In this document: positions 3 to 20,070 of the stretch, piece after piece
Layout of the letters: every line of letters begins with the position of its first letter
Numbering within the stretch: the first letter of the stretch is position 1
Assembly: GCA_033721955.1 (NCBI GenBank)
Contig: JAWVZY010000001.1
Location: forward strand, 1 to 38,327
Direction of reading: 5' to 3'
DNA from: Candidatus Spechtbacterales bacterium
Lineage (GTDB): Bacteria > Patescibacteriota > Minisyncoccia > Spechtbacterales > 2-12-FULL-38-22
Length of the DNA: 38,327 nucleotides
The notes under the pieces: model-generated
Databases searched by the model: none
The model's input: only the letters and a program-made list of their open reading frames with translations
What the model was told of the DNA's origin: nothing
Program-made: the position numbers and the translations under genes

Positions 3-1349
3 ATGCTTGAGTTCCCAGGCGATACTTACGGCCTGGCACTTAACTTAGAAGAAGATACGGTTGGTACAATTATCATTGGCGATTTTAAACATATTAAAGA
101 GGGCGATACAGTAAAGCGCACAGGAAAGGTTTTATCTATTCCTGTGGGTTCTGAAATGGTGGGGCGTATAATTGACCCGCTCGGCCAGCCAACAGACGGA
201 AAGGGATCTATAAATACAACAGATGAATATTTGGTTGAAAAAATAGCTCCCGGAGTGATGGACAGGGAGCCCGTAGATACTCCGGTGCAAACCGGCCTTA
301 AAGCCGTGGACTCAATGATACCTATCGGCCGGGGGCAGCGCGAGCTTATAATTGGCGACCGCCAAACAGGCAAAACAACAATTGCAATAGATACTATCTT
401 AAACCAAAAAGATCAGGATATGATTTGTGTTTATGTAGCCGTGGGACAGAAGAAATCTAAAATAGCTCGGCTTGTAAATACCCTGGAGCAAAACGGTGCC
501 ATGGATTACACTATTGTGGTTGCAGCGGGTGCCTCAGACGGCCCGGCATTTTCCTATCTTGCGCCTTATTCGGGTGTCGCAGCTGCTGAGTACTTTATGG
601 ATCAGGGTAGGGATGTATTAATTGTATATGATGATCTTTCAAAGCATGCTACTGCTTATCGTGAGATATCACTTTTGCTTCGTCGTCCTCCGGGGCGAGA
701 GGCATATCCGGGAGATGTATTTTATATTCACTCGCGCTTGCTTGAGCGCGCCGCTAAAAGAAATGCAGAGGCGGGAGGAGGTTCTATTACAGCGCTTCCC
801 ATAATTGAAACACAGGCAGGAGATATTTCAGCATACATTCCTACAAACGTAATTTCTATTACAGACGGCCAGATATTTTTAGAGAGCGGTCTTTTTCATA
901 AAGGCATCCGTCCCGCGATTAACGTAGGGCAATCTGTGTCGCGTGTGGGAGGTGCGGCTCAAATTAAATCAATGAAGAAAGTTGCAGGAAAGCTAAAGCT
1001 AAACTTAGCACAGTTCCAGGAGCTTGAGGCTTTTGCCCAATTTGCAAGCGACTTAGATGAAGAGACACAAAAGACGCTGGACAGAGGAAGGCGTATTCGA
1101 GAGCTCTTAAAGCAACCTCCGTATTCACCGGTTCGTGTGGGTGTGCAGGTAGCGATTATTTACGCTGTAAATAACGGATATTTTGATGATGTGGAATTTT
1201 CTGAGATCAAAAAAAGAGAACAGAAACTTACCGAACATATGGAATCAGCTCAGGGTGAGTTGCTTTCAGAAATTGAGCGTGACTGGGATGAGGGGCTGGA
1301 GAAGAAATTAAAGACAGCGATTGAGGATTTTATAAAAACACAATCATAG
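3..1349 (+). CDS. atpA: F1 ATP synthase subunit alpha (5' end outside window)
   Basis: 448-aa ORF. It has Walker A GDRQTGKT and the [27 protein letters not shown] block typical of alpha. It is followed by gamma, beta and epsilon in the canonical order. Confidence 0.97.
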
Positions 1350-1503
1350 CAAACAGGTCAGGACTTTACTTTTCAAGTACCGGCGGTTATTTTGCTCCAG
1401 CGGCAAAATCCCGCCTGCGCTCTCGGCGGTTTTGCCCGCGTCGCGGGACCAAGCCAAAACACGCCTGCGAGAGCTACTTAAAAGCAAAGTCCTGACCTGC
1501 TTG
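1349..1503 (+). ncRNA. Unclassified structured intergenic element, copy A (atpA|atpG spacer)
   Basis: Outer helix of about 25 bp (1354-1379 with 1475-1499) encloses several inner helices. Conserved strings are the UCCAGCG hairpin loop (1396-1402), GCUCUC/GAGAGC and GACCAAGC (1447-1454). The same architecture with compensatory changes occurs at 3852-3983. The strand is assumed from co-transcription with the atp genes. Confidence 0.5.
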
Positions 1504-1524
1504 AAAAATTTCCTTACCCAATTT

Positions 1525-2436
1525 ATGGCAAATACAAAAGAAATAAAACAAAAGATCGACTCCGTAGCCAACTTAAAAAAAATAACAAAGGCGATGGAAA
1601 TGGTAGCCAGAAGTAAAATGAAAAAGGCAACAGATGCCGCAGTAGCGACGCGCACTTACGCGGAGCTTGCACTTGAGCTTTTAGTAAACCTATCAACAGA
1701 GGATCATCGTAAAAATCCGTATTTGAGCGAACAGGAAGGCAAAAAGATATTAGTGTTGCATATTGCGTCAAACAAAGGACTTTGCGGTGGCTATAATGTT
1801 TCGCTCCTTCGTGCTTTAAATAAATATTTTGAAAAAAGAAACGAGGAGATAAATTTTGTCACAGTAGGCCGTTATGCCTATCGCCATGCTCTAAAGCTGG
1901 CTGACGGTTCGCTTGAGCGCTTTGATGATTTTTCAGATAATATTGAACCCGAAGAGACAAACGGGCTTGTAGATAAAGTTTTAGAAACTTACAAGTCAGG
2001 CGAGTACAAAGAGACATTTATTGTATATACAAATTTTGTATCAATATTTAGCCAGGAGGTTGTAATTAGAAAATTGCTACCTTTATCTGAAGAAAGCTTG
2101 GAGAGTGCAATAAAAGAGGCAGGTGCTGAGGGCGAGAGAACAGAAGATAAAAAAGACAAGGCAGCGCGCAATAGGGCACTGTATCTCTATGAGCCAAATG
2201 AGGAAGATATATTAGATTTTGTAGTTCCACGACTTATAAAGGTGCAAATTTATCAGGCATTGCTTGAGGCAAACGCGAGCGAGCATTCAGCGCGCATGGT
2301 AGCTATGAAGAGCGCAACGGAGAATGCTGATAAAAGGGGAGAGGAGCTTACCCTCCAGTTTAATAAAGCAAGACAGGAGGGCATTACAAAAGAAATATTA
2401 GAAATTGCCTCGGGTGCTGAGGCATTAAGTCAATAA
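1525..2436 (+). CDS. atpG: F1 ATP synthase subunit gamma
   Basis: The N-terminus MANTKEIKQKIDSVANLKKITKAMEMVARSKMKKA and the C-terminal ITKEILEIASGAEAL are typical of gamma. I place the start at ATG 1525; the ORF-track start at 1432 translates the structured spacer element. Confidence 0.93.
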   Translation: MANTKEIKQKIDSVANLKKITKAMEMVARSKMKKATDAAVATRTYAELALELLVNLSTEDHRKNPYLSEQEGKKILVLHIASNKGLCGGYNVSLLRALNKYFEKRNEEINFVTVGRYAYRHALKLADGSLERFDDFSDNIEPEETNGLVDKVLETYKSGEYKETFIVYTNFVSIFSQEVVIRKLLPLSEESLESAIKEAGAEGERTEDKKDKAARNRALYLYEPNEEDILDFVVPRLIKVQIYQALLEANASEHSARMVAMKSATENADKRGEELTLQFNKARQEGITKEILEIASGAEALSQ

Positions 2437-3828
<1,392 letters not shown>

Positions 3829-3851
3829 TTTTTGTAGTGTTTAATCGTTCC

Positions 3852-3983
3852 GCCAAACCGTTTCTTTAAAGTACCGCGGTCAGATTTTTCCAGCGAAAAT
3901 CTGCCGCTGCGCTCTCAGCGCAAATCTTCCTTCGGAAGACCAAGCATTTGCGCTTCCGAGAGCTACTTTAAACAAAGTTTGGC
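3852..3983 (+). ncRNA. Unclassified structured intergenic element, copy B (atpD|atpC spacer)
   Basis: Outer helix 3852-3873 with 3964-3983. Hairpin cagatttt / UCCAGCG loop (3889-3895) / aaaatctg. Further pairs are gctctc (3911-3916) with gagagc (3958-3963), agcgcaaat (3917-3925) with atttgcgct (3946-3954), and hairpin cttcc/ggaag. GACCAAGC lies at 3938-3945. Confidence 0.5.
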
Positions 3984-3990
3984 TCCGCTT

Positions 3991-4257
3991 ATGAATTTAT
4001 TAAATATTAAAATTATTACCCCGGCTGGGGTAGAATATGAAGGCAAAGTTGAACGTGCGACCATTCCAACAGCTGATGGCCAAATTACGGTGCTTGCAAA
4101 TCATACGCCCCTTGTATCTTTGCTTAGCGAGGGAGAGATAATTTTGAAGGGAGGAGATACGGATGAGGTGAAGTACAAGACGAAGGCGGGGTTTTTGGAG
4201 GTGCGACATGATAGCGAAGCGATACTCCTACCCGATTATATAGAAAAATCAAACTAA
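3991..4257 (+). CDS. atpC: F1 ATP synthase subunit epsilon, short form (88 aa)
   Basis: MNLLNIKIITPAGVEYEGKVERATIPTADGQITVLANHTPLVSLL matches the epsilon N-terminal beta-sandwich, and the gene sits after atpD. I place the start at ATG 3991 rather than TTG 3979, which lies inside the spacer element. Confidence 0.8.
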   Translation: MNLLNIKIITPAGVEYEGKVERATIPTADGQITVLANHTPLVSLLSEGEIILKGGDTDEVKYKTKAGFLEVRHDSEAILLPDYIEKSN

Positions 4258-4282
4258 AATACCCGGCGTAAGCCGGGTATTA
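4258..4282. terminator. Bidirectional intrinsic terminator between convergent atpC and tsaD
   Basis: Hairpin aatacccggc-gtaa-gccgggtatt flanked by A/T-rich runs on both sides. Confidence 0.7.
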
Positions 4283-4304: not shown

Positions 4305-5450
4305 TTATTCTGTAATAAGTTTTGTGCTGTCTGCCTCAAGCGTGCGCCAATCGCTGTCCTCTCCCGCGTTGTGGCGCAGATAGCCGGCTATAGCTATCAT
4401 AACTCCGTTATCTGTAGCTAGCGTTATTTCAGGCACTATGAACCGGGCTTCGGGCAGTTCTTCTTTAAGTTTTGCCTCCATTTGTTCTCTCAGGGCTGTG
4501 TTTGCGGCAACTCCGCCCGCTAACATAAATGTTTTTATATCATTATCTTTAGCCGCTTTTATGCTTTTTATAACAAGCGTGTCTACAACTGCCTGCTGAA
4601 ATGATGCGGCAAGATCTACCTTTTTATCTTCAAGTTCTTTTTTAGATAATTTCTGTACTGTATATAAAACTGCAGTTTTTAGGCCCGAGAAGCTAAAATT
4701 ATAATTTGGTTTTTTGAGCATAGGGCGGGGAAAATCAAAAGCATTTGCATTACCTTTTTTTGCCAACTTTTCAATTGCGGGACCTCCGGGAAAGCCAAGG
4801 CCAAGCATGCGCGCCACCTTATCAAATGCCTCACCCGCCGCATCATCAAGCGTCTCACCCAAAAGCTCATAGTCCATCCAGTTTTTAACCAGTATAAGCT
4901 GTGTATGCCCTCCGCTTACAGCTAAGGCAAGTGCTGGAAATTCTACTTTTTCAGCGCTAAGTAAATTTACAGCAATGTGTCCTTCCATATGATCTACTCC
5001 CACCAGAGGAATGTTCCAAAGAACCGCAAGGGCGCGGGCGAAATTAACCCCCACCCAAAGTGCGGGCTCAAGCCCCGGGCCATGTGTTACCGTTATTAAA
5101 TCAATATCAGGTTTTTCTAAGGGCACTACTTTTCCCTTGAATTCTTCAAGAAGCTTAGGATAGCGTTCAAGTATTTTTTCTATATCTTTTAATTTATCCT
5201 TTGAAGTTTTATTTTGTTTTTTCTCCGTTGTCTCTTCAAGAATTTGATAAAGTACAGGTATCAAATTTTTAGCGTGTTCTCTTTTAGCTAGACCAGGCAC
5301 TACTCCGCCAAATTCAGCATGTGCTTCAAGTTGACTTGATATAATATTTTGAAGCATTTTGAAAGAAGGCACCTTTGAGGTGCCTTCTTCTGCTTCTAAT
5401 AAAGCGAGAGCGGTATCATCGCACGATGTTTCAATACCTAAAATTTTCAT
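4305..5450 (-). CDS. tsaD: tRNA N6-adenosine threonylcarbamoyltransferase TsaD (Kae1/Gcp family)
   Basis: N-terminus MKILGIETSCDDTALALL, plus VDHMEGH and GGVAAN motifs typical of TsaD. At 381 aa it carries a lysine-rich insertion of about 40 aa. Confidence 0.93.
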   Translation of the reverse strand: MKILGIETSCDDTALALLEAEEGTSKVPSFKMLQNIISSQLEAHAEFGGVVPGLAKREHAKNLIPVLYQILEETTEKKQNKTSKDKLKDIEKILERYPKLLEEFKGKVVPLEKPDIDLITVTHGPGLEPALWVGVNFARALAVLWNIPLVGVDHMEGHIAVNLLSAEKVEFPALALAVSGGHTQLILVKNWMDYELLGETLDDAAGEAFDKVARMLGLGFPGGPAIEKLAKKGNANAFDFPRPMLKKPNYNFSFSGLKTAVLYTVQKLSKKELEDKKVDLAASFQQAVVDTLVIKSIKAAKDNDIKTFMLAGGVAANTALREQMEAKLKEELPEARFIVPEITLATDNGVMIAIAGYLRHNAGEDSDWRTLEADSTKLITE

Positions 5451-5527
5451 GGCGGTCCCAACGGGATTCGAACCCGTGTTACCAGGATGAAAACCTGGCG
5501 TCCTAGGCCGGACTAGACGATGGGACC
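5450..5527 (-). tRNA. tRNA-Glu (anticodon UUC), CCA encoded
   Basis: Minus-strand cloverleaf: GGTCCCA TC GTC TAGTCCGGCCTAG GAC G CCAGG TTTTCAT CCTGG TAAC ACGGG TTCGAAT CCCGT TGGGACC G CCA. The architecture resembles E. coli tRNA-Glu. Confidence 0.9.
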
Positions 5528-5641: not shown

Positions 5642-7108
5642 ATGTCAGGCGAAGAACTTATTTTTGCAGACAGTGAACCTGAGCCTCGGGAATTTACTAA
5701 AACTGTCCCCAAAGATCTTTCTCCTTTTTGGAGGAACATGAGCCAGAAGGTAAGCAGGGCTGTAGTGGGCCAGGAAAGAGCAGTTCGCAAAACCATTAGA
5801 AATTTAAGTATTCTTGAATCTCCCGCCCGCAATAACAGGAGAGCGGTACCCGCACTTTTGTTTGTAGGCCCCTCTGCCAGCGGTAAAACGCTTTTGGCCG
5901 AAGTTATCGCCCGTGAGTGGTTGGGTATTGCCGAAAATGAAAATGATGAGCAGGCAACAAGCCCGCTCGTTGTAATAGATGGCGAAAATTACAGTCAAAG
6001 GCATGAAGGATCTACGCTTAAAGGCGCTCCGCCCGGTTATGTAGGTCAGGATACTCCTTCACCATTTGAGGAAATAGGAAAGTTTGATAGAGAAAATCGT
6101 GAAAAAGCTTTTTTTGACGCCCTAGCTATATTTTGGAAAAAATATGAAGATCATCTTTTGGAGTCCGATAGATTATCACATCTTATGGACGATTATTTTG
6201 AAACTAAGCTAGAGTCCTATTTGGATAGTTTTAGGCCATTTCGTTCAGTTCTTTTGATAGATGAATGGGAAAAGATGCACCCCGTTGTACAAAAGCAATT
6301 TCTAAAAATACTGGATAAAGGCACATTCCAGACACATCATGGCAAGAAGATCAATTTCCGAAGAACTCTTATAATCCTGACAAGCAATATAGGCACAGAG
6401 AAGATTGCTAAAATACTCGACAACAATACAGTTGGTTTTGACCTTAGTCCCTCGACGGACGAAATTTCAAAACAAGAGATAAGCCAGGATATATACAGAG
6501 AAGTAGAAAAAGAAGTTCGCAGGAAACTTGATCCGGCGCTATATAGCAGGATAGGTCATGACGGCATAGTGGTATTCAATCGCCTGACAAAAGAAGATTA
6601 TGAAAAGATAGTCAATAGAGAAATTGAATATCTGCAGGAGAGATTCTTTCCGGATCAAAGTAATGCTGAAGTTATATTCATATATACAACAAAGGAATTT
6701 CGCGACATGATATTAGATAAATCTGATGTTGAGCGCGAGGGTGCTCGTCAGATTAACCGTCTTATATCTAAATATATGGAAAATCCTCTTGCAAATGCCT
6801 TTGACGGAGGTTACATCCTAAGCGGTGATCAGGTATTATTTGACGCTGTAGATGGAGAGGCCGTTATGCGCCGCAAGCCCAGATCAGCTAATTTCAAGAT
6901 ATTGCCCGCAGAAATTATAGATAGGGATAACAGTTCCGCTGCCCCCCGTAGCGAAGATAAAACAACTCAGGAATTTTTAGAAGAATTCGAGCACTATATG
7001 GAGCAAGCCCTTAAAGCCCTTCTTGAGAGGGATTCACACCCTCGCCCTCCTAAACATTTAAAAGATGATGATCCGCCCGATAGCGATGATCCACCTGAAG
7101 AAAGCTAA
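5642..7108 (+). CDS. Stand-alone AAA+ ATPase related to the second (D2) module of ClpA/ClpB/ClpC
   Basis: Walker A GPSASGKT and a D2-type pore-loop block LKGAPPGYVGQD. Walker B LLIDEWEKMHP, then NFRRTLIILTSNIG and a sensor-2-like EREGARQINR. It has no Clp_N, D1 or M-domain. An insertion of about 60 aa sits between GYVG and Walker B, and the C-terminal tail is Pro/Asp-rich. Confidence 0.75.
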   Translation: MSGEELIFADSEPEPREFTKTVPKDLSPFWRNMSQKVSRAVVGQERAVRKTIRNLSILESPARNNRRAVPALLFVGPSASGKTLLAEVIAREWLGIAENENDEQATSPLVVIDGENYSQRHEGSTLKGAPPGYVGQDTPSPFEEIGKFDRENREKAFFDALAIFWKKYEDHLLESDRLSHLMDDYFETKLESYLDSFRPFRSVLLIDEWEKMHPVVQKQFLKILDKGTFQTHHGKKINFRRTLIILTSNIGTEKIAKILDNNTVGFDLSPSTDEISKQEISQDIYREVEKEVRRKLDPALYSRIGHDGIVVFNRLTKEDYEKIVNREIEYLQERFFPDQSNAEVIFIYTTKEFRDMILDKSDVEREGARQINRLISKYMENPLANAFDGGYILSGDQVLFDAVDGEAVMRRKPRSANFKILPAEIIDRDNSSAAPRSEDKTTQEFLEEFEHYMEQALKALLERDSHPRPPKHLKDDDPPDSDDPPEES

Positions 7109-7130
7109 AAAATAGTTTATTTTTCAATGC

Positions 7131-7161
7131 TCCGCCCAAAAGCGGAGCTTTTATTTTTTGC
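7131..7161 (+). terminator. Intrinsic terminator after the AAA+ gene
   Basis: gctccgc-ccaaaa-gcggagc followed by ttttatttttt. Confidence 0.75.
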
Positions 7162-7205
7162 ATAAAGTATGCTCAATAACACCACAAATTATTTTTTTTA
7201 CAAGA

Positions 7206-7234
7206 TTGACCATATGCCTCTCTTCTTTTATCAT
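7206..7234 (+). promoter_or_regulatory. Putative sigma70-type promoter for prkA
   Basis: TTGACC (7206-7211), 17 nt, TATCAT (7229-7234). Confidence 0.5.
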
Positions 7235-7304
7235 ACTCGTATAACAAGCCCTTTAAAAACTTAATAAGGGTTGAGTCGATAATTCAAAGGAAGGAGGATA
7301 TATC

Positions 7305-9428
7305 ATGTCCTCACAAGATGAACTCAATTCGAAAGGAGGTGGAGACGTGAGCGATAAGAAAGAAATAATTGTGCCCGAAAACAAAACCCTTAGTTTTCAT
7401 TTAAACGCGGTACTTGAAGAGGAAAGACGTTTTGAGAACGCATTTCAAGGCGTCTCCAGGATGATACTGGAGCAAGGCGTAGAAAAGGAAACAAGAGGCG
7501 GCAGAACTACTTACGATTTTCCCTTTTTCCGACAAGGAAAGAGGCATATCGTTGGTTGGTATGATGAGATAAACGCATTTGTAAACTTTGTACAGGAGGG
7601 CGCTCGAGGAGGCGCGGGTGCTGAACAGGCATTCGTCCTTATTGGTGAGCCCGGCAACGGTAAAACCTTTTTTGTGGAATACGTATCCACCGGTTACAGG
7701 CGATTTTTGTCAGAGCCGGAGAATACAAAATACACAATAGAATTTGTGAATCTGGATAGGATTAGTAAATACGAAAGACTTCCCGTTATTCAGTCGCAGA
7801 CATTTGAGGATCCACTTATTCTTGCCATGAACCTTTATCAGGCAGAGGACAAGAACAGGGAATTCCTGGCTGAGGCTGGATTTAGTGAGAAAGAAAATAT
7901 TTCTAAGTTCTATGATAACTACCGCCCTTTGGGTGCGTGTACCGAATATATCTGGGATGACATCCGTAATTATTGCGATGGTGATATGGGAAAGATGCTC
8001 TCATTTGTGAGAGTTGTTCCTGTACCCATTGCTGAGAGTTTGGGGACAGTAACCGGTAAATATTCAGCCGGCGATAAGATAACATCCTCTGCTACAGATC
8101 TTCTGGGCGAGCAGGATATATCACGCTTGTTGAACCTGGCGGAAGATACCAACCACCCCTACAAATACAATGTGCGCATAGGCGCTCTTGCACGCGTAGG
8201 CGGCGGAGGCATCCATTTCTCCGATGAGATATTTAAGAATAAAAAAGATCTTGTGCAGATATATTTGCAGGTTATCCAAAACAGGAATATTGAACTTGAT
8301 GGTTATAGATGGCCTATAGATACTCTTATTATCGCGACAAGCAATAATTCAGAGTATAATACATTTATTTCTGAAAAGGAGCAGGCCCCTGTTAAAGACA
8401 GGAGCACAACCTGTTACGTATCTCACAATACCCATTACAAAGAGCAAGAAAAGCTAACACGATATGTGCTTGGCTCAGAGAAGAAGTCAACAGTTGAGGG
8501 TGAGAATCTTCATGAAGATCCCAACCTCAATTACGCGCTTTCAGTGGCAGCCACGCTTACCCGTCTTCCTCATAGCAAGAAACTGTCTCCTATTGAGACA
8601 ATGAAGCTTGAGGCTGATGAAGTAGCAGGTGATAAGGGTGTAAAAACTCTTCAGGAAGTTAAAGATATAGCTAATACCAACCAGGATGTTACAAAGCGTT
8701 GGGGTCAGAAGGGTATCGGGCATAGAGGCCTGGGCAGAACTGTCCAACGCATGCTTTCTATGGCTGAGACCCACGAAGGCAAATGTCTTTTTGCCAAAGA
8801 CGCTTTTGACGCGTTGGAGCGAGAGATAATTGATTATGTGCCCGAGAGCACGGATCGTCAGAAATTTGAACAAGATGTTCAGGTAGCGCGCGAACTTTAC
8901 AGGGAGCGCATCAAGACAGAGATCTATAATGCATTCAGGGATGACCCTGATGCCATTAGGAAAGATGTCATGGCATATGTGAATATGGTTATCGGCATTG
9001 ATTCTGAACAACTTGGTCCCGATAAAATTTGGAGATATAAAGATCCCCAGACAGGAAAATTGACTCCTATCAAAATAGATGAACGCTTTATTGATAGCGT
9101 TGAATCGCGCATGGGACTTAATTCTCAGGAAAGGCGCGACGCCCATCGCACAAGTATTCGCAAGATATATGGACAGAAGATAAGTACTGATCCTTCATAC
9201 GACTTTATGGATAACGAGAAATTGGTTAAGGCCGTTACAGATGTGCGGCTTGAATCTGATGTTGCAGGTGCCGGTTCTTTGGTCGGCGCTCTGAGCAATC
9301 GTACCCATGAAGAGAATGTTGAGATCTACAACAGAATGGTAAACACAATGTTTAAGAAGCTGGGTTATTGTAATACCTGTGCTGAAAAAACAATCGAGTA
9401 CTTCTGTGAAAAAGACGATGAAACTTGA
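7305..9428 (+). CDS. prkA: PrkA family AAA+ protein (PrkA/YeaG; annotated serine protein kinase)
   Basis: 707 aa with Walker A GEPGNGKT and a GGGIHFSDEIFK Walker B region. Size and layout match PrkA/YeaG, and it is followed by DUF444 and SpoVR genes as in yeaG-yeaH / prkA-yhbH loci. An in-frame GTG at 7347 also has a strong SD (gaaaggaggtgg), so the start is ambiguous by 14 codons. Confidence 0.85.
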   Translation: MSSQDELNSKGGGDVSDKKEIIVPENKTLSFHLNAVLEEERRFENAFQGVSRMILEQGVEKETRGGRTTYDFPFFRQGKRHIVGWYDEINAFVNFVQEGARGGAGAEQAFVLIGEPGNGKTFFVEYVSTGYRRFLSEPENTKYTIEFVNLDRISKYERLPVIQSQTFEDPLILAMNLYQAEDKNREFLAEAGFSEKENISKFYDNYRPLGACTEYIWDDIRNYCDGDMGKMLSFVRVVPVPIAESLGTVTGKYSAGDKITSSATDLLGEQDISRLLNLAEDTNHPYKYNVRIGALARVGGGGIHFSDEIFKNKKDLVQIYLQVIQNRNIELDGYRWPIDTLIIATSNNSEYNTFISEKEQAPVKDRSTTCYVSHNTHYKEQEKLTRYVLGSEKKSTVEGENLHEDPNLNYALSVAATLTRLPHSKKLSPIETMKLEADEVAGDKGVKTLQEVKDIANTNQDVTKRWGQKGIGHRGLGRTVQRMLSMAETHEGKCLFAKDAFDALEREIIDYVPESTDRQKFEQDVQVARELYRERIKTEIYNAFRDDPDAIRKDVMAYVNMVIGIDSEQLGPDKIWRYKDPQTGKLTPIKIDERFIDSVESRMGLNSQERRDAHRTSIRKIYGQKISTDPSYDFMDNEKLVKAVTDVRLESDVAGAGSLVGALSNRTHEENVEIYNRMVNTMFKKLGYCNTCAEKTIEYFCEKDDET

Positions 9429-19147: not shown

Positions 19148-19230
19148 CGGAGGGGGTGGGATTCGAACCCACAAGTGCTTGCGCACGCCGGTTTTCAAGA
19201 CCGGTGGAATAGCCGTTATCCGACCCCTCC
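19148..19230 (-). tRNA. tRNA-Ser (anticodon UGA), no encoded CCA
   Basis: GGAGGGG TC GGA TAACGGCTAT TCC A CCGGT CTTGAAA ACCGG, then a long variable arm (GTGC-GCAA-GCAC), then GTGGG TTCGAAT CCCAC CCCCTCC G. Confidence 0.85.
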
Positions 19231-19353: not shown

Positions 19354-19406
19354 TTTCAACAACACTAAAAGGCAGTATTGAAATAATTGCGGAGAGGGTG
19401 GGATTC
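19354..19406. repeat. Direct repeat copy 2 (trailer plus 3' end of tRNA-Ser-GCU)
   Basis: See copy 1; the spacing between copies is 118 nt. Confidence 0.85.
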
Positions 19407-19474
19407 GAACCCACGGGCCGCTAACGCGGCATGGATTAGCAATCCATTGCTTTAGGCCACTCAGCCACCTCTCC
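19390..19474 (-). tRNA. tRNA-Ser (anticodon GCU), no encoded CCA
   Basis: GGAGAGG TG GCT GAGTGGCCTAA AGC A ATGGA TTGCTAA TCCAT, then a long variable arm (GCCGC-GTTA-GCGGC), then GTGGG TTCGAAT CCCAC CCTCTCC G. Confidence 0.9.
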
Positions 19475-19994: not shown

Positions 19995-20070
19995 GTCCTC
20001 GTAGTTCAGTGGATAGAACGCTTCCTTGCGGAGGAAGAGGTCGGAGGTTCAAATCCTCCCGAGGACGCCA
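19995..20070 (+). tRNA. tRNA-Arg (anticodon GCG), CCA encoded
   Basis: GTCCTCG TA GTTC AGTGGATA GAAC G CTTCC TTGCGGA GGAAG AGGTC GGAGG TTCAAAT CCTCC CGAGGAC G CCA. Confidence 0.9.

Follow-up and report, generated by a model that had tools for sequence, protein, structure and literature searches.

Two hairpin elements in the spacers of an atp operon

The DNA analysed here is a 38-kb stretch (the window) of a 'Candidatus Spechtbacterales' contig that carries the ATP synthase genes atpA, atpG, atpD and atpC. Two spacers of this operon are occupied by long hairpin elements, referred to as copies A and B, and their parts are arranged as follows:

3-1349: atpA, stop codon at 1347-1349, flanks copy A upstream
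1350-1503, + strand: copy A, whole hairpin element in the atpA-atpG spacer (RNAfold)
1350-1379 / 1475-1503: outer stem of copy A
1375-1479, + strand: three-way-junction core of copy A, consisting of P1 (AAGUA/UACUU), P2 and P3 (covariance models)
1382-1386 / 1411-1415: lower P2 of copy A, GGCGG / CCGCC
1389-1395 / 1403-1409: upper P2 of copy A, ATTTTGC / GCAAAAT
1396-1402, + strand: P2 loop of copy A, TCCAGCG (UCCAGCG), near-invariant in the family
1419-1424 / 1469-1474, + strand: P3a of copy A, GCTCTC / GAGAGC, sequence-conserved family-wide
1425-1433 / 1456-1465: P3 helix of copy A, GGCGGTTTT / AAAACaCGCC
1435-1447: P3c hairpin of copy A, CCCGC / GCGGG
1447-1454, + strand: bulge GACCAAGC of copy A on the 3' side of the P3c hairpin, near-invariant
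1525-2436: atpG, ATG at 1525, between copies A and B
2443-3828: atpD, stop codon at 3826-3828, upstream of copy B
3852-3983, + strand: copy B, whole hairpin element in the atpD-atpC spacer (RNAfold)
3869-3968, + strand: three-way-junction core of copy B (covariance models)
3889-3895, + strand: P2 loop of copy B, TCCAGCG
3911-3916 / 3958-3963: P3a of copy B, GCTCTC / GAGAGC
3938-3945, + strand: bulge GACCAAGC of copy B
3991-4257: atpC, ATG at 3991, downstream of copy B

Copy A directly abuts the atpA stop codon with its 5' end and terminates 21 nt upstream of the atpG ATG; copy B lies 23 nt downstream of the atpD stop and 7 nt upstream of the atpC ATG. All helices and motifs that a first-pass annotation had assigned to the two spacers were located at the positions claimed. 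Its proposal that both spacers adopt the same fold agrees with the RNAfold results, as the three-way junction is both the MFE and the centroid prediction for each copy, with an MFE of -76.5 kcal/mol (z -8.9) for copy A and -56.5 kcal/mol (z -7.1) for copy B, and no equally good shuffle among 200 in either case. The unpaired motifs are identical between the two copies and the stems are different: 13 of 45 consensus pairs are changed on both sides with pairing kept, which bears out the earlier statement that the helices persist despite sequence change. Within the window, the pattern GCTCTC..GACCAAGC is restricted to copies A and B (0.00 occurrences expected by chance), and even an unfiltered search with the family-wide covariance model detected no third copy in the 38 kb.

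Neither copy can be read as an intrinsic terminator, as the combination of a GC-rich hairpin and a U-run is missing in both; no U-run follows copy A or B, and neither whole element is terminator-like. The only terminator-like site inside either copy is a small hairpin of copy B (3908-3922) that matches the consensus within P3, and the terminator-like hairpin of the atp operon itself is located after atpC (4258-4281). The GC content of the two copies amounts to 52-61%, compared with about 29-51% in flanking 150-nt windows.

A covarying family in CPR bacteria and Omnitrophota

Candidates for further copies were collected by a nucleotide pattern scan, which returned 78 loci, and were then evaluated with two covariance models, R1 and R2. 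The models confirmed 46 copies in 40 of the 78 pattern loci, and together with the window (two copies) and three copies in additional loci the collection comprises 51 model-confirmed copies from 44 sources, a sample that pattern-based discovery biases towards well-preserved copies. For each genome 8-kb pieces were examined, and copy counts, with up to three copy-bearing loci per genome, refer to these loci. The cores of copies A and B score 124.8 and 109.4 bits with R1 and 99.9 bits (E 4e-19) and 96.1 bits (E 2e-18) with the family model R2. The covariance-model search that the first-pass annotation had suggested for related genomes has thus led to about 50 strongly covarying copies. All hosts belong to CPR lineages (Saccharibacteria, Niyogi-, Colwell-, Lipton-, Wolfe-, Jorgensen- and Peregrinibacteria) or to Omnitrophota, or are bacteria unclassified in their records.

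The element is about 130-155 bp long and is framed by a terminal stem, an inverted repeat of 15-30 bp that is specific to each element lineage. Strong constraint on the structure, as postulated from the two atp copies, is evident across 48 family members: 95.1% of the stem cells are paired, as against 67% for shuffles and 42-47% for slid controls, and double changes were counted in 465 cells and affect 29 of 35 pairs. The exception is P3a (helix 4, GCUCUC/GAGAGC), which is near-invariant, with changes on both sides in one of its six pairs and two pairs that never vary, whereas the remaining stems vary freely provided that Watson-Crick pairing persists. Near-invariance also applies to the unpaired nucleotides, namely CC in J1/2, the P2 loop UCCAGCG (closing U·G pair in 47 of 48 members), UGC in J2/3, the bulge GACCAAGC and a 3-nt bulge (UCC/UGC). 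The three-way-junction core with its near-invariant loops and freely covarying stems is new, as is its host range.

Besides this compact element we found an extended form of about 330 nt, in which copies are flanked by GGGCAKGGUGCC. It has a second covarying hairpin, whose loop and the P2 loop are reverse complements, and the base of the extended form consists of the conserved GAGCGGGCAKGGUG / CGAGCGAGGNCGAG. The flanking motif recalls P10-P12 of RNase P; this candidate was dismissed, as Rfam returned no match at the gathering threshold, nor at E <= 1 for six extended-form loci.

The view of the first-pass annotation that the structure belongs to no named RNA family withstood comparison with Rfam 15 for either copy up to E <= 10. 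The window contains only tRNAs at the gathering threshold, positions 1300-4050 gave two chance snoRNA matches and nothing else at E <= 10, and 18 copy-bearing loci remained without a match at the gathering threshold. In the literature on CPR palindromic elements, MITEs and RNA motifs we found no earlier description of the family. Several other candidates were discarded. A K-turn in P3, suggested by a 3-nt bulge followed by GA, is contradicted by the opposing bases, which are Watson-Crick partners on inspection. A phage origin was considered on account of one pattern match in a viral contig, which is due to chance (20.7 bits with R1, nothing at E <= 0.01 with R2). Finally, a weak model match in the TsaD gene of the window coincides with a 38-aa insertion that is AT-rich and K/E-rich and has no spanning hairpin, and is hence unrelated.

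Filled and empty sites in related atp operons

Across two phyla, near-invariant loops together with covarying stems are what one would sooner expect of a functional RNA than of selfish DNA in decay. One reading of copies A and B is a cis-acting RNA module that is reused in many transcripts as a site for RNase III or other processing, as a stabiliser or as a protein-binding site, and that would set the relative expression of alpha/beta versus gamma/epsilon in the atp operon. The very strong covariation speaks for it, as do the longer form with a second hairpin and a complementary loop and the position of both atp copies, in sense orientation and each directly 3' of the gene for a high-stoichiometry subunit.

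The atp operons of relatives argue against such a role. In two genomes with an AtpG 66% identical to that of the window (L160 and L161) the atp sites are empty, with atpA-atpG spacers of 36 nt in L160 and 4 nt in L161 and an atpD-atpC spacer of 17 nt in L160. The element is also absent from 80 more distant atp operons of metagenome relatives (35-41% AtpG identity), which served as negative controls. The atpA-atpG site is filled in L162 alone (AtpG 70% identical), so that conservation at the same position in related organisms was not found. The L162 copy resembles window copy B at its 3' terminus and carries compensatory changes in P3a relative to the window. Its retention with such changes, together with the sense orientation of the window copies, leaves room for some function in the mRNA. 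Of the original reading as an atp-operon RNA, the fold and the constraint on it are real, but the specificity for the atp operon is not: the family is a dispersed repeat, present in multiple copies and polymorphic in its insertion sites.

Copies within genes

Nine copies are located within ORFs, which were called naively in the copy-bearing loci: three in mnmA, three in genes of class-V aminotransferases (cysteine-desulfurase-like) and one each in the genes of FolD, TGT and ComFC. The host reading frame is open through all nine, and their lengths are multiples of three. Comparison with solved structures revealed clean inserts of 39 residues between residues 136 and 137 of MnmA and of 64 residues between residues 101 and 102 of TGT. 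The element thus tolerates in-frame placement within essential genes as well as placement in intercistronic spacers. At the MnmA site, 30 of 120 CPR cluster representatives carry the element-derived peptide, and the nearest MnmA relative (74% identity) has an empty site; the same MnmA and cysteine-desulfurase-like sites are occupied in several lineages.

Such recurrence would be explained if the element were a small ORF-less ribozyme or intron-like RNA that is removed from transcripts by itself or otherwise, as removal would account for the occupation of conserved positions in conserved genes. The compact three-way junction with near-invariant unpaired nucleotides recalls small self-cleaving ribozymes, and the long terminal stem joins the two borders. 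We nevertheless consider this very unlikely in view of the open host frames and of two in-gene copies (TGT, ComFC) that are antisense and unable to act as the same RNA. Besides, the ribozyme and intron families of Rfam gave no match even at E <= 10. Five intergenic copies with Pfam-checked flanking ORFs are informative as well: four lie between arginase and SecA, Ddl and a class-II tRNA synthetase, UvrD and malic enzyme, and DnaG and RpoD, and the fifth is followed by an ORF without a Pfam match. As the flanking ORFs are distinct genes, none of these five copies splits a gene.

In the seven sense copies within ORFs a single frame is used throughout (7/7), encoding the recognisable peptide ...TGRSSAPAAEA.LRSR..GDQA..SESF..., and this uniformity, along with the spread of the peptide among MnmA homologues, could indicate a protein-coding module that is selected as a peptide insert and whose nucleic-acid fold is incidental. 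The window copies and most others are intergenic, however, with the conserved blocks in mutually different frames, the antisense copies within ORFs give another peptide, and the encoded residues vary freely where the nucleotides of the stems covary. The peptide as the selected entity is largely refuted by the copies that are intergenic or antisense, and we regard it as scarcely credible.

Strand symmetry and orientation

For an RNA acting on one strand, G·U pairs should greatly outnumber A·C mismatches and the orientation should be consistent. The stem cells contain 23 G·U and 24 A·C combinations, and the opposite strand of copy A folds into a mirror junction (z -9.3), that of copy B into a structure of -60.1 kcal/mol (z -5.6). 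G·U is thus no commoner than A·C and either strand forms an equally good fold, which places the constraint on the Watson-Crick complementarity of the two strands and not on RNA in particular. Both orientations occur between genes as well as within ORFs; among intergenic copies between co-directional ORFs, our count from the ORF table gave 14 sense and 6 antisense copies. The lean towards sense fits a cis-acting RNA, whereas the antisense copies, the symmetry of the strands, the copies read through in-frame in coding sequence and the near-identical copies at unrelated loci (see below) all count against it, and taken together with the empty atp operons they make this reading unlikely.

Near-identical copies and insertion ends

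Evidence for recent mobility comes from single genomes. Two unrelated loci of one Colwellbacteria genome (L006 and L019) carry copies identical at 157 of 161 positions, and in a Liptonbacteria genome (L016 and L018) the identity amounts to 154 of 161. In these cases near-identity spans the full terminal stem and ends at the stem base. The element therefore has terminal inverted repeats in the manner of a MITE, which are the same in recent copies and differ between lineages. The first-pass annotation had argued that covariation excludes a MITE- or REP-type repeat; in the light of near-identical copies, terminal stems included, at unrelated loci, this argument fails. The element is multi-copy and insertion-polymorphic, and both orientations are tolerated.

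Inspection of the borders of copies from Colwell-, Lipton- and Wolfebacteria made no direct repeat evident, and we identified neither a transposase nor a target motif at the ends of recent copies. With none of these features identified there, the mechanism of transposition is entirely inferred.

Comparison with known repeats

Judged by shared features rather than by sequence comparison, the closest analogue appears to be the Rickettsia palindromic elements (RPEs), which occur between genes and also in-frame within unrelated housekeeping genes, whose products thereby gain a conserved peptide (PMC10969869). Like RPEs, the present elements are short palindromic, hairpin-forming repeats (about 100-150 bp in RPEs) without a transposase of their own. 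Both are dispersed in many copies in-frame within unrelated housekeeping genes and between genes, and both reside in small-genome bacteria that depend on other cells. As the host phyla differ, Rickettsiales on the one side and two phyla, Patescibacteria/CPR and Omnitrophota, on the other, we classify the family as an analogue of RPEs and not as a member. It further differs in its three-way-junction core, the near-invariant unpaired nucleotides and stems that are almost wholly different between lineages.

MITEs and related repeats (ERIC, Correia/NEMIS, BOX, RUP) are commonly co-transcribed within operons and can alter mRNA processing or stability (PMC10969869). They share with our family the short, non-autonomous nature, the inverted-repeat ends and the long hairpins. 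The present family, in contrast, has no conserved terminal inverted-repeat sequence, its terminal stem being alike in recent copies only; family-wide conservation resides in the internal junction instead of the ends, and no target-site duplication was seen at the borders inspected.

REP/REPIN sequences combine a hairpin with a short conserved motif that is recognised by RAYT (HUH) transposases; REPs are extragenic by definition, with units of about 35 nt and a GTAG head. The present elements resemble them in the maintenance of structure rather than sequence and in their intercistronic sites, but have another architecture and, with nine copies inside ORFs, are not strictly extragenic. REPs have no target-site duplications, and none was evident at the inspected borders of the present copies. 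In yeast mitochondria, mobile GC-rich palindromic clusters, among them the translationally bypassed 'byps', likewise invade coding regions, and as in our case the elements are more GC-rich than the genome around them. Hosts and sequences are unrelated, and as the host frame is preserved through the present element, bypassing need not be assumed. The ATPC RNA motif (Rfam) of cyanobacterial atp operons is also a structured element between ATP synthase genes; copies A and B differ from it in having no Rfam match at E <= 10 and in belonging to an element that is not atp-specific.

Proposed origin and implications

Copies A and B are probably members of a non-autonomous palindromic mobile DNA repeat that is distributed across CPR bacteria and Omnitrophota, with the atp copies as passengers. 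We propose a trans-acting factor whose target is the set of conserved unpaired nucleotides presented by the junction; the junction itself could arise in RNA or in either DNA strand when single-stranded. The complementarity of the stems may be kept by this recognition requirement together with the swapping of whole hairpin modules between copies. The passengers in the atp operon would be co-transcribed in sense orientation and would fold into very stable structures. With the inserted bases looped out in this way, the stop codon before the element and the start codon behind it would remain near each other in space. Effects on atp expression, if any, would then be by-products; the mRNA 3' of atpA and atpD, which encode the two high-stoichiometry subunits, might for example be protected or processed.

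A more far-reaching and doubtful possibility is that CPR bacteria and Omnitrophota share an undescribed mobility system guided by structure, in which the junction serves as the module for recognition or catalysis. The 330-nt form would then be the master, a functional RNA or ssDNA, from which the short copies, including the atp pair, derive as non-autonomous elements, with pairing kept by the copying mechanism and not by stepwise compensatory mutation.

For the mobile repeat as such, the combination of invariant loops, freely covarying stems and strand symmetry is unusual for selfish DNA. This conservation pattern points to a folded single strand that is recognised by a putative enzyme, a question tractable in cultivable Saccharibacteria. 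It also holds a caution for the discovery of RNA motifs, as strong covariation alone failed to tell a palindromic mobile element from a functional RNA. CPR bacteria and Omnitrophota have tiny, gene-dense genomes that are thought to be poor in repeats. In view of a palindromic repeat shared across phyla, their 'lineage-specific protein insertions' and long intergenic spacers need rereading, as the affected sites include operon spacers and in-frame positions in tRNA-modification and Fe-S enzymes. The covariance model R2 provides a ready annotation marker for the repeat.

Two copies of one fold in the atp operon

The window is an entire contig (38,327 nt) of a 'Candidatus Spechtbacterales bacterium' MAG (Patescibacteria/CPR) and carries a hairpin element in each of two atp spacers.

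Annotated features of the window
3-1349, atpA, first gene of the window
1350-1503, copy A of the hairpin element, nearly filling the 175-nt atpA-atpG spacer
1525-2436, atpG
2443-3828, atpD
3852-3983, copy B of the hairpin element, nearly filling the 162-nt atpD-atpC spacer
3991-4257, atpC
5453-5527, 19148-19230, 19390-19474 and 19995-20067, four ordinary tRNA genes (Rfam RF00005)

All helices and motifs described for the two copies in the first-pass annotation lie at the coordinates given there, and RNAfold bears out their shared fold: minimum free energy and centroid structures are the same three-way junction for copy A (-76.5 kcal/mol, z -8.9) and copy B (-56.5 kcal/mol, z -7.1), with no shuffle as good in either case. 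Between the copies, 13 consensus pairs are changed on both sides with pairing kept, and the motif pair GCTCTC..GACCAAGC occurs in the window only in these two instances (0.00 expected). The structure is real and under strong constraint. It also belongs to no named RNA family, as had been supposed: neither copy matches Rfam 15 at the gathering threshold or even at E <= 10, the four tRNA genes being the sole Rfam matches of the window.

Downstream, atpC converges on tsaD, and the perfect 10-bp hairpin between them (AATACCCGGC..GCCGGGTATT, 4258-4281, flanks T-rich) is probably a bidirectional terminator marking the true end of the atp operon. In TsaD (4305-5450), a K/E-rich stretch of 38 residues (5115-5228, minus strand; local GC about 29%) is inserted between the positions that correspond to residues 66 and 70 in solved structures of TsaD; the insertion is not bridged by any hairpin, and it was rejected as an unrelated sequence rather than an element copy.

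A dispersed family in two phyla

Searching one genome of each GTDB species with an exact pattern from the three identical motifs yielded 78 loci, about half of which fold into the element architecture; the others are chance matches in GC-rich genomes. A covariance model of the two window cores (R1) detected 48 copies at E < 0.01, six of which the pattern had missed. With the family model R2, 40 of the 78 loci were confirmed to hold 46 copies in all, and loci fetched later added three. A lone pattern match on a viral contig was confirmed by neither model. Hosts are Saccharibacteria, Niyogi-, Colwell-, Lipton-, Wolfe- and Jorgensenbacteria (Parcubacteria-type), Peregrinibacteria, five Omnitrophota MAGs and a few bacteria without classification in their records.

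The proposed covariation of the stems extends to these homologs. In the 48-copy alignment, standard pairs make up 95.1% of cells vs 67.2% after shuffling and 42-47% when partners are slid, both sides are changed at 29 of 35 pairs (465 cells), and none of 500 shuffles matches it on any measure; fitting of the alignment to the model somewhat inflates these figures, but the margin is nonetheless very large. The family consensus is cgg.nACCgg.nng.UUc-[stem]-U CCAGC G-[stem]-cnnc.CUGCGCUCUCg-[stem]-[hairpin]-gACCAAGC-[stem]-cUcCGAGAGCU. This conservation pattern, an invariant junction with free stems, is unusual. Literature searches turned up no account of an element of this kind in CPR; the family seems to be undescribed.

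Signs of mobility and origin of the window copies

Copies at unrelated loci of one genome are nearly identical in Colwellbacteria (157/161 positions, L006/L019) and Liptonbacteria (154/161, L016/L018), and likewise in Wolfebacteria and Omnitrophota pairs. Since this identity spans the whole terminal stem and stops at its base, the stem behaves like a terminal inverted repeat specific to the element lineage. The borders of these copies show no evident target-site duplication or target motif. The unlike termini, previously taken as an argument against a MITE/REP-type copy, arose because two old copies were compared and the terminal stem is lineage-specific; in recent copies it is identical.

In two Wolfebacteria copies (L043:1027-1145 and L045:5443-5561), helices P1 and P3 are nearly identical, while the P2b hairpin is wholly different and paired in both; in the L043 copy the terminal stem lacks its distal 3' arm. 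Such sequences suggest that copies may swap whole hairpin modules, with conserved junction segments as anchors, rather than change by stepwise compensatory mutation. Individual copies also vary in layout: two share an intergenic region, placed head-to-head with 78 nt between them (L076:2069-2170, plus, and 2248-2360, minus), one has a 51-nt nested insert in its 5' part (L040, ~2490-2540), one has an additional perfect hairpin after GACCAAGC (L003:5451-5592), and another is similarly oversized (L047:2346-2481, 136 nt).

The element is not, as it had seemed from the window, specific to the atp operon: in 80 atp operons whose AtpG is 35-41% identical, no copy is present. Among the closest relatives, which were recovered via the protein collection, the atpA-atpG spacer is 4 nt in L161 and 36 nt in L160 (AtpG 66% identical in both), and L160 also has a 17-nt atpD-atpC spacer. 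L162 (AtpG 70% identical) has a copy upstream of atpG with a variant P3a (CCCCUC/GGGAG) and a 3' end (..AAAGTTTGGTTCCGCTTA) like copy B and not copy A. Both window spacers are therefore insertions acquired within this lineage, and the elements in them must be read not as an atp-operon RNA but as two members of a new mobile palindromic repeat family resembling the Rickettsia palindromic elements (RPE).

Copies inside genes

Nine copies lie within long ORFs whose frame is still open.

In-gene copies (gene assignment by Pfam)
L075, L020, L066: sense, MnmA
L067, L024, L046: sense, class-V aminotransferase / cysteine-desulfurase-like
L048: sense, FolD
L072: antisense, TGT
L007: antisense, ComFC

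All seven sense copies share one frame, encoding ...TGRSSAPAAEA.LRSR..(F)GDQA..SESF..., and the antisense copies encode a peptide unlike it. Against solved structures, the copies are clean inserts of 39 residues in MnmA (query 1-128 and 168-412 matching chain 3-136 and 137-362) and of 64 residues in TGT (query 2-80 and 145-392 matching chain 22-101 and 102-356). At E <= 1e-3, hmmsearch found the element-derived peptide at the MnmA site in 30 of the best 120 MnmA cluster representatives (P0121-P0240); the same search of an AtpG control set gave nothing below E = 1.9. The site is empty in the nearest MnmA relative (P0122, 74% identity, locus L165), and at L163:1894-1998 it holds a diverged copy (65 bits with R2) whose frame change is compensated downstream. 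As in-frame insertion is tolerated in both orientations, we infer that in-gene copies are translated rather than spliced out. Around five intergenic copies inspected for split genes, the flanking ORFs with a Pfam match are distinct genes.

In CPR, the MnmA surface loop between residues 136|137 of the solved structure is a hot spot for insertions, with unrelated low-complexity inserts such as NSKFKIQNSKF in other homologues. A strong intergenic copy lies directly upstream of mnmA at L164:1356-1460.

The closest analogue is the RPE, repeats of about 150 bp without transposase whose in-frame copies in many unrelated genes code for a conserved peptide (review PMC10969869). The family is treated as an analogue rather than a member, the comparison covering described features; it differs in its host phyla, of which it spans two, and in its invariant junction with free stems. 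Hairpin ends and probable co-transcription within operons recall MITE, ERIC and Correia elements, and a maintained structure with no evident target-site duplications recalls REP/REPIN, but unlike REP the family is not confined to extragenic sites.

RNA or DNA constraint

The covarying fold had been read as a structured RNA. In stem cells (n=1,589), however, G·U pairs are no commoner than A·C mismatches (23 vs 24, excluding the near-invariant U·G closing the P2 loop). The opposite strands fold as well, copy A as DNA into the mirror junction (-53.6 kcal/mol, z -9.3) and copy B as RNA (-60.1 kcal/mol, z -5.6), and intergenic copies between co-directional ORFs are 14 sense and 6 antisense (hand count, naive ORF calls). 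Hence, the constraint is on complementarity of both strands, as expected of a DNA palindrome or of a fold needed in either single strand, and not of an RNA acting solely as sense transcript. A functional-RNA role is unlikely.

The palindromic repeat is shown to be dispersed and polymorphic for insertion, and it is tolerated both in the spacers of operons and, in-frame, within genes. It would be non-autonomous and mobilised in trans, with the near-invariant unpaired nucleotides displayed on the junction as the putative recognition determinant, and the stems would need only to pair. In the atp mRNA it is predicted to fold very stably, without a U-run, and looping out of the inserted bases would keep the upstream stop codon and downstream start codon near each other. 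As copies A and B each lie 3' of the gene for a three-copy subunit (alpha, beta) and 5' of that for a single-copy subunit (gamma, epsilon), a stabilising or processing side-effect on the mRNA is conceivable.

An extended form and a neighbouring palindrome

An extended form of ~330 nt exists in both CPR and Omnitrophota.

Extended forms of the element
L016:~870-1250
L021:~6920-7290
L034:~1230-1500
L054:~2300-2620
L069:~7190-7500
L060:~1400-1760
L011:~2950-3200, possible, from a CYCGCYGGGR match at 3151-3160

From the outside inwards, it consists of a 15-25-bp outer stem, a conserved GAGCGGGCAKGGUG and a long stem with the three-way-junction core, followed by CGAGCGAGGNCGAG, also conserved, and a second hairpin that covaries; it has no match in Rfam. 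The 7-nt loop of this hairpin, (U/A)CGCYGG, and the P2 loop CCAGCG are reverse complements; in two of the six loops examined, a C would mismatch. The loop could serve as a kissing loop or as a second binding site in inverted orientation. We regard as unlikely a more exotic reading in which the junction forms the core of a novel, structure-guided system of mobility and the extended form is its master copy.

Near element copies in Liptonbacteria, Saccharibacteria and Omnitrophota, genomes from different phyla, we also noted an exact 20-nt palindrome, CCTGCCTGCCGGCAGGCAGG (L016:2468-2487, L021:6985-7004, L060:1645-1664). It may represent another small family of palindromic repeats.
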